Notes under the pieces: generated by a model | What the model saw: the letters and a program-made list of their open reading frames with translations, nothing else | Database searches by the model: none | What the model was told of the DNA's origin: nothing | Assembly: GCA_964501515.1 (NCBI GenBank) | Contig: CAZCSS010000001.1 | Span: 1-53,954, forward strand | Length of the DNA: 53,954 nt | Direction of reading: 5' to 3' | Source: an uncultured archaeon | GTDB taxonomy: Archaea > Aenigmatarchaeota > Aenigmatarchaeia > QMZP01 | Shown here: positions 8,912 to 44,449 of the stretch, one piece after another | Layout: each line of letters begins with the position of its first letter | Numbering within the stretch: the stretch's first letter is position 1 | Program-made: the position numbers and the translations under genes

Positions 8912-9706
8912 TTAACCTATATACCTGAGCTGCTCGCCCTGCTTTACAGGCGCCTTCTGTTCCTTTGTCATTTGCATCAGGGCCTTTCTCTGGAGGTCCT
9001 CTATCTTTCTTATGAATTTCTCCATCTCGGACACTTTCTTCTCGAGCTTGGTCATGTCTATCTTGAGTTTTAACATCTTGGTCAGAATATCCAGAACGAC
9101 CTCGGCTGCCTTTGGGTCAGTCACTATGGGGAAACCGGATGTTTCGCCCAGAAGGGAGATGCCCCTCATATCTCGTTCAGCACCGAGCCCGAGGAGAAGG
9201 CCGGCCGCTCCCACGATGTAACCAATCTTCTTTCCTGCCTCAAACTGTATTCCGTACCCCTGATATTTCTTCAGCAGCGACTTGTCTGTCACGGCTCCCA
9301 GAACCTCTGGCTTGTCCTCGATCTCTCCTGTGGCTATGCCACCTACTGTGAAGATGTCCTTTACCCCGAACTTCTCCACAAAATCCAGGACTGCCTTCAT
9401 AACCTCATAATGGCCGTTCGGGGAAAGGGCCTGGCAGTCGCCTATCAGAAAAATCATATCTCTCTGACCCTTCTTCTTGGCCTTCCAGTAGTAGAATTCA
9501 TTCTTCAGAAGATGAATCTGGTACTCGTCGTGAAGGACAACAAAGGGGAAAAAATGCTGAGAATAGAGCTGGGCGAACTTCTTTGCTCCCAGTTCTTCTA
9601 TGAGATACCCAACAGCCACGCGGCCGATGTTTCCCACTCCAGGAAGGCCTTCAATAAGAACAGGATTCGTGAGTTTGGGCCTCTCGAAGGTTTTTATTAT
9701 AGTCAT
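8912..9706 (-). CDS. Proteasome assembly chaperone (PAC2) family protein
   Basis: NPVLIEGLPGVGNIGRVAVGYLIEEL is the COG1938/PAC2 pattern. The start is set at ATG 9706 (MTIIKTFERP). Confidence 0.8.
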   Translation of the reverse strand: MTIIKTFERPKLTNPVLIEGLPGVGNIGRVAVGYLIEELGAKKFAQLYSQHFFPFVVLHDEYQIHLLKNEFYYWKAKKKGQRDMIFLIGDCQALSPNGHYEVMKAVLDFVEKFGVKDIFTVGGIATGEIEDKPEVLGAVTDKSLLKKYQGYGIQFEAGKKIGYIVGAAGLLLGLGAERDMRGISLLGETSGFPIVTDPKAAEVVLDILTKMLKLKIDMTKLEKKVSEMEKFIRKIEDLQRKALMQMTKEQKAPVKQGEQLRYIG

Positions 9707-10027
9707 GTTAATCTCTTGAATATTGGTCTGGAGATAATAAAAAGGTTTAGATGCAAAGGGCGCTGAAAAAGCAACGCCCCCTGCGTTGATGCTCCTGGCG
9801 GGATTTTCGCACATCCCCTTCATATTTTGATGAACTCTGGAGATTTGAGATGTGAGAGCTCCTGCAAAGGGGATTGTGTTTTTGAACCCGCGTCACAGGC
9901 TTTCTTCGCTCTCATGGGCTGCCGCACAGCAGCGGCAACCTCGAATCTTTCGAGCCGGGCCCGAAAGGCCTGGATCCTTGACCGGACTAGACGACAGGAG
10001 CATAGTTCTGGTTATTTGACACGGATA

Positions 10028-10035
10028 TTTAAAAA
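10028..10035 (+). promoter_or_regulatory. TATA-like box for tRNA-Ala
   Basis: tttaaaaa lies 25-32 nt upstream of the tRNA 5' end at 10060. Confidence 0.5.
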
Positions 10036-10059
10036 TAAATGTGTTCTATTGGTTTATGT

Positions 10060-10376
10060 GGGCTGGTAGATCAATGGTAGATCGCCCGTTTCGCATGCGG
10101 GAGGCTCCGGGTTCGAAACCCTGCTTTAGAGGATGGAACAAAAGGAAAGAATCAATGATTCTTTCTTTCCAGTAATTGCCTTCTGCAAAAAGCAGGGAGT
10201 AAAACCGCAAGCAACGCATAGGTGTCTGATTCCCTGGCAGCGAAGAGGAACGAAGTCCCTGCCCTTGGCATGAGTGCGCACTGCCAAGGGCAGGCACAGC
10301 ACATCTCTCGCAATATGCTGCGAGATTCCTTCGCTCCGTCTGCAGGGAATCTCCTTCGAGAATCCCGGCCAGTCCA
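10060..10376 (+). tRNA. tRNA-Ala(CGC), split as join(10060..10117,10363..10376) by a 245-nt intron at position 59/60
   Basis: The D-arm is GATC/GATC and the anticodon arm is CCCGT-TTCGCAT-GCGGG. The T-stem CCGGG (10107-11) pairs with CCCGG (10364-68). The acceptor GGGCTGG pairs with CCAGTCC (10369-75), giving G3:U70, with discriminator A73. The sequence immediately contiguous with exon 1 gives no acceptor pairing. Confidence 0.85.
10118..10362 (+). other. tRNA intron with a BHB-like junction; 245 nt and highly structured
   Basis: The central helix is TTCG (10112-15) with CGAG (10357-60), flanked by 3-nt bulges AAA and AAT. Internal perfect helices are 10119-27/10189-97, 10145-52/10158-65, 10228-36/10343-51, 10258-70/10282-94 and 10306-12/10319-25. 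Confidence 0.75.
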
Positions 10377-10410
10377 CAACTAATTTTAATACACAACAGA
10401 AAGGATAGTT

Positions 10411-10959
10411 ATGGTCTTCACATTGTACAGCTTTATAGAGGCGCTCTGGCTGATTCTCCCCGCGTACGCAGCCAACGGCCTCACCCCACTGATTGGGAAG
10501 AAAGGTTCCCTGCACAGGGTGGATTTCGGGAAAAGGTTTATGGGAGAGCCCCTTCTGGGAAAGGGAAAAAGCTGGGAAGGCCTTTTTTTCGGAAGCTTTG
10601 TGGGGGCCCTGGTTGCCACGATCCAGATGCTGGCCTTCCCTTATCTTCCGTTTGAAATGTCCCCATTGGAGCTCATGGTTGTTCCCATGACGCCCCTGCT
10701 GGGCCTTCTTCTGGGAGCGGGCGCGCTGACAGGTGACGTGGCCGGAAGCTTCATAAAAAGGAGACTCGGAATAAAGAGGGGTCAGTCTGCTCCGCTGCTC
10801 GACCAGCTGGATTTCCTGGCAGGAGCACTCCTCTTCTCAGGTGTTCTGGTTTCAGTGAAGCTGGAATGGGTTATCATGCTCTTTGTAATCACCCCTGTAA
10901 TTCATATCGCTGCAAGCTTGATAGGCTTCAGGGCCGGCATAAAGAAAAATCCCTGGTGA
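10411..10959 (+). CDS. carS: CDP-archaeol synthase (DUF46/CarS)
   Basis: LPAYAANGLTPL...HRVDFG...GKGKSWEG, followed by multiple TM segments. Confidence 0.85.
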   Translation: MVFTLYSFIEALWLILPAYAANGLTPLIGKKGSLHRVDFGKRFMGEPLLGKGKSWEGLFFGSFVGALVATIQMLAFPYLPFEMSPLELMVVPMTPLLGLLLGAGALTGDVAGSFIKRRLGIKRGQSAPLLDQLDFLAGALLFSGVLVSVKLEWVIMLFVITPVIHIAASLIGFRAGIKKNPW

Positions 10960-44284: not shown

Positions 44285-44449
44285 TAGCGGGGGTTGGATT
44301 CTCCAGTGGAAACCGGCGACCGGTTTGTTCTGCCTTTTGAACCAACGACCTTTGGGTCTCTCAGGAGCAAATCCCTATGAGCCTTTCGCAATCCCATGCG
44401 GTTTTCACGCAGGGGTTACAACGAGCACTCCAGGCTGCTCCACCCCGCT
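44285..44449 (-). tRNA. Initiator tRNA-Met(CAT) with three introns. Exons are 44449..44419, 44383..44376, 44357..44336 and 44298..44285.
   Basis: The acceptor AGCGGGG pairs with CCCCGCT, giving A1:U72. After splicing, the anticodon stem is TTGGG/CCCAA (G29-31:C39-41) and the loop is CTCATAA. The T-arm is GTTGG-TTCAAAT-CCAAC. The central helices are 4 bp for introns 1 and 2 (TCGT:GCGA, CTCA:TGAG) and 3 of 4 bp for intron 3 (TTCA:GGAG), each between 3-nt bulges. Confidence 0.85.

Follow-up and report, generated by a model that had tools for sequence, protein, structure and literature searches.

A tRNA-Ala(CGC) gene whose last 14 nt lie 245 nt downstream of the rest raises the question of whether the gene still yields a tRNA, the insert being removed as an intron, or has been broken, and of how an insert of this length came about. 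We studied the gene within the window, the whole 53,954-nt (54-kb) stretch of DNA analysed, and compared it with the corresponding loci of relatives. The locus is very probably a functional tRNA-Ala(CGC) gene of a probable member of the Aenigmatarchaeota, with an intron at position 59/60 of the T-loop that proteins would splice and that would have reached its length by neutral modular growth.

The tRNA-Ala(CGC) gene, its host and its orthologues

The gene and its upstream region contain the following features.

10025..10040: AT-rich TATA-like element ATATTTAAAAATAAAT, read from the sequence, midway between the divergent tRNA-Glu and tRNA-Ala genes
10060..10117, plus strand: exon 1 of tRNA-Ala(CGC), 58 nt, from ARAGORN on the spliced sequence
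10118..10362, plus strand: intron, 245 nt, set by the exon boundaries
10363..10376, plus strand: exon 2, 14 nt, with U60, the T-stem 3' strand (CCCGG), the acceptor 3' strand (CCAGTCC, containing U70) and A73

Exon 1 supplies the 5' strand of the acceptor stem, the D arm, the anticodon arm with CGC, the variable loop, the 5' strand of the T-stem and TTCGAA (positions 54-59). Joined to exon 2 it gives 72 nt, which ARAGORN calls as tRNA-Ala(cgc). Once the insert is taken out, the sequence forms a cloverleaf with the right identity elements: a 7-bp acceptor stem with G3:U70, a 4-bp D stem with a GG loop, the anticodon loop UUCGCAU, the T-stem CCGGG/CCCGG, the 7-nt T-loop TTCGAAT and the discriminator A73. 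The latter is the last encoded base, CCA being absent from the gene. The initial annotation had placed two exon pieces 245 nt apart and had read their union as a perfect tRNA-Ala(CGC) with G3:U70 and A73; the positions are exact to the base, and the ARAGORN call on the spliced form agrees with the reading.

In its unspliced form the locus received no ARAGORN call, even with anticodon-loop introns permitted. The Rfam tRNA model matched only 10066-10124 (35.6 bits), because the first intron bases, ACCCTGC, mimic the 3' strand of the T-stem. An assembly artefact was rejected because the same sequence, at 100% identity, is present in three assemblies (ENA, JGI and Logan), which are separate and yet may come from one sample, the populations not being necessarily independent.

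The window has the content of an ordinary archaeal chromosome, with genes for ribosomal proteins L35Ae, S8e, S2, L19e and L18, MetRS, RFC, NrdD, Mre11 and a HerA-like protein. The gene downstream of tRNA-Ala (10411-10959) encodes CDP-archaeol synthase, CarS. NCBI gives several homologues of this CarS, at 56-60% identity, the label Candidatus Aenigmarchaeota or Aenigmatarchaeota; the host is probably a member of the Aenigmatarchaeota (DPANN), and the labels are consistent with the DPANN-type host that had been guessed at the outset. Pfam searches of about 60 ORFs found no EndA or RtcB gene in the window. Among DPANN, disrupted tRNA genes go together with EndAs that have an L3 loop (PMC5829648). 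The element ATATTTAAAAATAAAT lies ~28 nt from the 5' end of each of two tRNA genes (tRNA-Glu at 10001, minus strand; tRNA-Ala at 10060, plus strand) and is a putative shared or bidirectional archaeal promoter.

CarS served as the anchor by which loci of relatives were collected from GTDB genomes, JGI metagenomes and a large protein collection. Wherever the relative was close enough and the flanking DNA long enough, tRNA-Ala(CGC) adjoins CarS, and it is interrupted each time. The loci are given below with the percent identity of their CarS and the position and length of their introns.

L084 (CarS 71%): introns at 37/38 (68 nt) and 59/60 (104 nt)
L085 (CarS 67%): introns at 37/38 (68 nt) and 59/60 (74 nt)
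L086 (CarS 66%): introns at 20/21 (109 nt) and 59/60 (79 nt)
L087 (CarS 65%): intron at 59/60 (83 nt)
L088 (CarS 64%): introns in the D-loop and at 59/60 (15 nt)
L041 (CarS 58%): introns at 20/21 (88 nt), 37/38 (18 nt) and 59/60 (75 nt)
L005 (CarS 52%): intron at 59/60 (74 nt)
L006 (CarS 51%): intron at 59/60 (39 nt)
L007 and L045 (CarS 56% and 62%): introns in the D arm and/or at 37/38 only

T-loop introns of 15-104 nt, in the same register, are thus found in 8-9 CarS-linked relatives, and all spliced forms are called tRNA-Ala(cgc). Orthologous T-loop introns measure 0, 0, 15, 39, 74, 74, 75, 79, 83 and 104 nt, compared with 245 nt in the window. The exons are 76-85% identical between window and orthologues, and the window intron has no detectable similarity to any orthologue intron. 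The sequence of the relative closest by CarS identity, L083 (75%), ends inside the tRNA, and in the next ones (71-64%) the introns are shorter and unrelated. A shared T-loop register, conserved and covarying exons and introns unrelated to that of the window bear out the earlier reading of the insert as a non-canonical archaeal tRNA intron.

In an alignment of seven spliced orthologues, 98.6% of the cells were paired. The acceptor stem and the T-stem, which are the helices split by the T-loop intron, were paired completely (100%) and included four double-compensatory pairs; G3:U70 was invariant. The observed covariation was reached by 0 of 500 shuffles, and only 43-49% of cells were paired when partners were slid by one column. 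The 14-nt 3' exon co-evolves with the 5' exon across introns that differ greatly in length and sequence, which would be the signature of working, spliced genes. No homologue of the window intron was found by which selection on its flanking exons could be traced from the time it grew to 245 nt.

Predicted splice junctions and the bulge-helix-bulge motif

All junctions were read by the same bulge-helix-bulge (BHB) rule, under which each strand has a 3-nt bulge beside a 4-bp central helix and is cut after the second nucleotide of that bulge. At the tRNA-Ala junctions it gives these elements.

10112..10115, plus strand: 5' strand of the central helix, TTCG (T-loop positions 54-57), pairing 4/4 with 10357-10360
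10116..10118, plus strand: 5' splice-site trinucleotide AAA, predicted cut 10117/10118, unpaired probabilities 0.41-0.62
10348..10356, plus strand: spacer AAUCUCCUU, 9 nt, between a potential inner strand GCAGGG (10343-48) and the central helix
10357..10360, plus strand: 3' strand of the central helix, CGAG, pairing 4/4 with TTCG at 10112-10115
10361..10363, plus strand: 3' splice-site bulge AAU, predicted cut 10362/10363, unpaired probabilities 0.65-0.89

As exon 1 and the intron both end in GAA, the sequence would allow four places for the junction, 56/57 to 59/60; the BHB rule alone fixes it at 59/60, where it had been put from the start. The predicted 3' cut makes U60 the first nucleotide of exon 2. 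Both cuts fall two nucleotides into the trinucleotides that flank the 4-bp central helix (AA/A and AA/U).

The unconstrained MFE fold (-130.7 kcal/mol) shows the cloverleaf arms, the T-stem, the central helix, here extended to 6 bp, and a single-stranded AAU. Counting against our explanation, the pairs of the T-stem and central helix have an ensemble probability of only ~0.4 in the 317-nt RNA. AAU forms a canonical 3-nt bulge between T-stem and central helix. The 5' AAA lies at a multi-branch junction, with the central helix on one side and the first intron hairpin on the other, and is not a closed 3-nt bulge, though on the 5' strand the site is still flanked by two helices, as the hairpin strand CCCUGCUU begins right after AAA. 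With an outer helix (the T-stem, h) of 5 bp and an inner helix (h') of 0 bp in register, the strict hBHBh' form, in which both helices abut the bulges, is absent; since no inner helix abuts the 5' bulge, the motif in the predicted fold is a relaxed hBH. Of the BHB geometry in the initial annotation, the central helix TTCG:CGAG and the 3' bulge AAT stood, and the closed bulge at the 5' AAA did not. For EndAs of broad specificity, relaxed BHB forms count as members of the family (PMC3239211).

Like the window intron, the intron in pre-tRNA-Cys(GCA) of ARMAN-2 (Ca. Micrarchaeum acidiphilum) belongs to a DPANN host, is located at 59/60 and has an outer helix, a 3' bulge and a central helix without a proper inner helix. 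This hBH intron was cut in vitro by an epsilon2 EndA (Fujishima et al. 2011, PMC3239211), and the ARMAN-2 genome is likewise rich in disrupted tRNA genes. It differs in length (13 nt versus 245 nt) and in host (Micrarchaeota versus probable Aenigmatarchaeota), and, unlike it, the window intron has its 5' site next to a multi-branch junction from which two large hairpin domains extend.

Further split tRNA genes were located with a purpose-written scanner, which required 7-bp acceptor pairing and a T-stem whose 5' strand precedes TTCRA, and allowed any gap. Two were found in the window besides tRNA-Ala, and their spliced forms were confirmed.

10001-9790, minus strand: tRNA-Glu(UUC), introns at 37/38 (60 nt) and 59/60 (77 nt)
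44449-44285, minus strand: initiator tRNA-Met(CAU), introns at 29/30 (35 nt), 37/38 (18 nt) and 59/60 (37 nt)

All three tRNA genes of the window are therefore interrupted, by 6 introns in total, and each has an intron at 59/60. Across 15 T-loop introns of the window and its relatives, 91.7% of the cells of the central helix were paired, against 57-68% when the strands were slid by one; T-stem pairing in this alignment is true by construction, and the central helix is the sole independent test. The 3' bulge is AAU in 13 of the 15, and the pair nearest the 5' site covaries (A:U in 6, G:U in 3, G:C in 2, unpaired in 4). Chance pairing at the window junction can be excluded, because the register is kept in these 15 introns and the split acceptor stem and T-stem covary across orthologues.

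We infer the following course of transcription, cleavage and ligation, and the type of enzyme involved. A primary transcript of ~317 nt would carry the intron at 59/60 of the T-loop. The T-stem would form across the intron, and UUCG (54-57) would pair with CGAG, which in the intron comes shortly before the 3' junction. The 3' site would be displayed in the 3-nt bulge AA/U, and the 5' site AA/A would lie at the opposite end of the 4-bp helix, where two hairpins branch. An EndA, necessarily of a broad-specificity form, would cut both sites, and an RtcB-type ligase would join the exons and restore the TTCGAAT loop. The intron would be released, probably as a circle, and CCA would be added post-transcriptionally.

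A deletion scan in silico showed that removal of the 9-nt AAUCUCCUU (10348-10356) restores a strict hBHBh' motif. Removal of 159 nt (10198-10356) also yields a strict BHB, with an inner helix of 9 bp and an intron of 86 nt, a size typical of relatives.

A tRNA-Ala(CGC) is dispensable in principle where a UGC isoacceptor exists, and for that reason the gene might have been inactivated recently. A spliceable intron of ~85 nt would have been hit by one palindromic insertion of ~160 nt or by several, the inner helix lost and splicing left poor, and GCG codons would then be read by tRNA-Ala(UGC). The inner helix is indeed absent in register and comes back with either deletion, in length the window intron exceeds the T-loop introns of those Ala(CGC) orthologues that have one by a factor of 2.4 to 16, and it has no homologue in any relative sampled. 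Nevertheless the exons show no defect and have, at covarying pairs, the states found most often, and the central helix, complete and with two G:C pairs, is among the best of the 15. Introns with h' of 0-1 are present in equally intact genes of the clade (tRNA-Ala of L084 and L086, tRNA-Glu of the window), hBH introns of ARMAN-2 at 59/60 are cleaved in vitro, and long T-loop introns, 132 and 201 nt, are tolerated in relatives. We consider a recently disabled gene quite improbable.

Content and proposed growth of the 245-nt intron

Two large hairpin domains of the intron branch, in the MFE fold, from a multi-branch loop beyond the central helix.

10119..10198, plus strand: hairpin domain 1, closed by CCCUGCUU:AAGCAGGG (MFE structures; inverted repeats I2 and I4)
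10228..10351, plus strand: hairpin domain 2, closed by the perfect 9-bp helix GAUUCCCUG:CAGGGAAUC (inverted repeats I1 and I8; pair probabilities 0.72-0.81)

Domain 1 includes a near-perfect 13-bp palindrome at 10142-10168. The closing 9 bp of domain 2 (10228-36/10343-51) hold a 16-bp hairpin (10255-10297) and a 7-bp hairpin (10306-10325).

A search of 9700-10500 found no Rfam family in the intron at the gathering threshold or at E <= 10, the group I, group II, C/D and H/ACA families included. The best box C/D matches had E >= 4.4, far under the gathering scores, and inspection of the intron for the C (RUGAUGA) and D (CUGA) boxes found just a 5/7 C-box-like AAUGAUU. The sole ATG ORF (46 aa, 10133-10273) had three marginal matches to long repeat proteins and no credible homologue among 1.8 billion representatives, and an antisense ORF of 116 aa had no Pfam match. 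An intron nested within the intron was also rejected: 9 internal BHB-like candidates were counted, compared with 6.8 +/- 3.2 in shuffles, and none of them restores the strict outer motif.

A self-splicing group I or group II intron was rejected with the Rfam search, in which no such family matched even at E <= 10, and the host is archaeal. Minimal group I introns of bacterial tRNA genes come close in size to the 245-nt insert, and split tRNAs, trans-spliced as in Nanoarchaeum, occur in DPANN (PMC4033280). The two halves of the window gene are nevertheless co-linear, on the same strand, in the right order and 245 nt apart; an independent 3' half would measure 14 nt, and no promoter-like AT-rich box precedes 10363. 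The junctions, moreover, fit the BHB register common to 15 cis introns. Either of these readings, group I intron or split tRNA, is so improbable that it may be practically disregarded.

The insert could be a transposable element with terminal repeats, a case that the initial annotation had named as contrary to its own reading. No terminal inverted repeats are present at the exact ends of the insert, the interior of which is built of palindromes. The copy search, which covered the 54-kb window and collections of viral contigs, phage genomes and plasmids, found no second copy in the window and no match elsewhere, and no integrase or transposase was found near the intron. TTCGA is repeated at both junctions because the palindromic T-loop needs it to form the central helix.

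The RNA fold of the intron is strong, with z = -5.9 against dinucleotide shuffles, 0 of 200 of which fold as well. The intron might be kept, then, for a functional or selfish cargo: it could persist after excision as a stable, structured and perhaps circular RNA, contain a guide RNA like the tRNA-Trp introns, or be a mobile palindromic element with BHB sites as its targets. Archaeal tRNA-Trp(CCA) introns nest a box C/D sRNA (PMC4090602), and like the window intron they are unusually long, structured BHB introns in a tRNA gene. They differ in lying at the canonical 37/38, in measuring ~65-105 nt and in having recognisable C/D boxes and a guide function, which the window intron lacks. As the stems are DNA palindromes, nearly perfect and free of a strand-specific G:U signature, the antisense strand folds as strongly (z = -5.6); the equal scores therefore give no strand-specific sign of a selected RNA.

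Mobility has some support in the relatives, where different tRNAs share an intron module of ~50 nt, at 37/38 and at 59/60 and every time directly beside the 5' splice site; comparison of these loci shows that intron sequences are mobile within the clade. The module (GAACCCTTTTGGCC...CGTTCGCGGAAAGAACGCT) was searched by nhmmer with a profile of 6 sequences, which had strong hits in L005 and L041-L044. The window intron is outside this family (E > 2), the best hit in the window (E = 2.9) being located outside the intron. It also has no conserved homologue that could reveal selection, no copy in the window or in the viral, phage and plasmid collections, and no C/D or H/ACA match in Rfam. Retention for a cargo seems to us even less credible than a disabled gene, and the great length is probably not caused by an embedded function.

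Growth of introns can be followed in the tRNA-Glu orthologues. The tRNA-Glu(UUC) gene of L085 is 415 nt long, with introns of 139 nt at 37/38 and 201 nt at 59/60, and that of L084 has introns of 56 and 132 nt, the latter at 59/60. The T-loop introns of window (77 nt), L084 and L085 align with large block indels, one of which is a purine/pyrimidine palindrome that resembles the window Ala hairpin at 10142-68. These block indels between orthologous introns of 77, 132 and 201 nt show that introns of the clade become longer when hairpin modules are inserted. The length of the window intron would most likely reflect neutral, modular growth of a former ~80-90-nt intron by palindromic hairpin blocks, and the most economical account would be an ~86-nt strict-BHB intron enlarged by about 159 nt. 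A bolder proposal is that the tRNA introns of the clade are landing pads, which grow by mobile palindromic modules inserted at BHB sites, for example through reverse splicing of excised introns, and that the highly structured, probably circular RNA of the Ala intron persists as a selfish or functional RNA. We hold this to be unlikely, if somewhat less so than a cargo or a disabled gene.

Precedents and significance

Archaeal tRNA introns measure 11-129 nt, with medians of 12-25 nt, according to a 2014 review (PMC4090602). At 245 nt, the window intron has about twice the upper length of this range and is the longest among about 25 T-loop introns of the window and its relatives. The initial annotation had called the length exceptional, which overstates the case: a relative has a T-loop intron of 201 nt, and Supplementary Data 4 of Valentin-Alvarado et al. 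(2024, PMC11291895) lists a 257-nt intron (472228-471972) in tRNA-Leu(TAG) of Atabeyarchaeia-2 (gene 472268-471924). A length of 245 nt is rare and, to our knowledge, that of the longest T-loop intron on record, but as a length of a tRNA intron it has a precedent, and so do its position and motif.

Like the host lineage, the Asgard archaea Atabeyarchaeia and Freyarchaeia have tRNA genes full of introns, which are often non-canonical and several to a gene; PMC11291895 reports introns in 92-95% of the genes. They differ in belonging to another superphylum, and their 257-nt intron is near the canonical anticodon-loop site (offset ~40 nt) and not in the T-loop. On the table page that holds it, all other introns are < 100 nt.

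Multi-intron tRNA genes and intron transposition are described for Thermoproteales (Sugahara 2008 and Fujishima 2010, as summarised in PMC4033280 and PMC8450103). Going by these summaries, the likeness extends to as many as three introns per gene at non-canonical positions, to genes missed by standard tRNA finders, and to related introns at differing positions and in differing tRNAs, as in L084, L085, L041, L005 and L088. The same accounts indicate that Thermoproteales, which are TACK and not DPANN, have introns mostly of 12-25 nt, in contrast to the 245-nt window intron, which is without relatives. The tRNA-Ala intron does not represent a new mechanism; BHB-type introns are a known kind. Introns at 59/60 are the rule in the host lineage, where very long ones can arise.

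All three tRNA genes of the window are invisible to, or truncated by, ARAGORN and Rfam. Because standard tools miss such split genes, the tRNA complements of DPANN MAGs of this type, their completeness and inferences on codon usage will be badly underestimated, and the remedy is BHB-aware searches that tolerate long introns.

The substrate range of EndA would be extended by a 245-nt intron with two hairpin domains at the 5' site, and by the 132- and 201-nt introns of relatives. A 415-nt precursor for a 75-nt tRNA, as in a relative, would also widen the size that a broad-specificity endonuclease must handle. Long T-loop introns are concrete substrates for asking what EndA needs at the 5' site. 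The clade further provides a natural series, with introns of 0 to 245 nt at the same site of the same gene, with block indels and with a module that occurs at 37/38 as well as 59/60; from this series one could learn how tRNA introns of archaea arise, change place and lengthen.

Further split tRNA genes in the window

The window carries a second split tRNA gene, for tRNA-Glu(UUC), which was called by neither ARAGORN nor Rfam. It is retained at L084, L085, L041 and L088, four loci of relatives, and is interrupted twice, at the canonical anticodon-loop position (37/38) and in the T-loop (59/60).

9790-10001, minus strand: tRNA-Glu(UUC), split gene
10001-9962, 9901-9881 and 9803-9790, minus strand: its exons
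9961-9902, minus strand: 37/38 intron, 60 nt
9880-9804, minus strand: 59/60 intron, 77 nt
8912-9823, minus strand: PAC2 ORF, mechanical call, 303 aa

When the 37/38 intron (window 9902-9961) was compared with those of L084 and L085, its flanks (GGCYCNGCYYGAAAGATTCGAG ... TGAGAGCGRRGAA) were conserved between species about as well as the exons, and the central hairpin was replaced or compensated.

As called, the N-terminus of the PAC2 ORF overlaps exon 3 and the T-loop intron of this gene. Because the orthologue at L087 has only 266 aa, the true start is probably a Met inside the ORF, some 38 codons downstream (MTIIKTF...), and the overlap would therefore disappear.

The third split gene encodes an initiator tRNA-Met(CAU) and comprises four exons and three introns; one of the exons measures just 8 nt (44376-44383).

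44285-44449, minus strand: initiator tRNA-Met(CAU); introns at about 29/30 (within the anticodon stem, 35 nt), 37/38 (18 nt) and 59/60 (37 nt)

Orientation of the tRNA-Ala gene

In the window (10060-10376), as at L041, L045, L087 and L088, the tRNA-Ala gene lies on the same strand as CarS, the CDP-archaeol synthase gene. The two are on opposite strands at L084, L085, L086, L005, L006 and L007. At L084 the flanking tRNA-Glu and CarS genes keep their orientation despite the flipped tRNA-Ala. The tRNA-Ala gene, of about 0.3 kb, has therefore undergone at least one inversion in situ.

Long introns and a recurrent module in relatives

At L085 the tRNA-Glu(UUC) gene (reverse strand, locus coordinates about 664-1078) takes up 415 nt to encode a tRNA of 75 nt; its introns measure 139 nt at 37/38 and 201 nt at 59/60. 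Its T-loop intron corresponds to the 132-nt intron of L084 plus inserted blocks, a mobile module among them. At the more distant L047 (CarS identity 44%), a different tRNA at 13-126 carries an apparent T-loop insert of 27 nt together with an insert in the anticodon region, which suggests that T-loop introns reach beyond the immediate clade.

The module, of about 50 nt with two hairpins (GAACCCTTTTGGCC..GTAAACGTCCAAAA.CGTTCGCGGAAAGAACGCT.CCGC), is repeated among relatives and was not found in the window.

Loci with the intron module
L084, 650-893
L085, 1726-1939
L041, 534-787
L005, 655-801
L088, 453-668
also L042, L043 and L044

Within one tRNA-Ala gene it occurs at 37/38 and 59/60 alike, it is also found in T-loop introns of tRNA-Glu, and in every case it directly adjoins the 5' splice site. 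Such recurrence looks like intron duplication or transposition in a DPANN-like clade, resembling that of the Thermoproteales.
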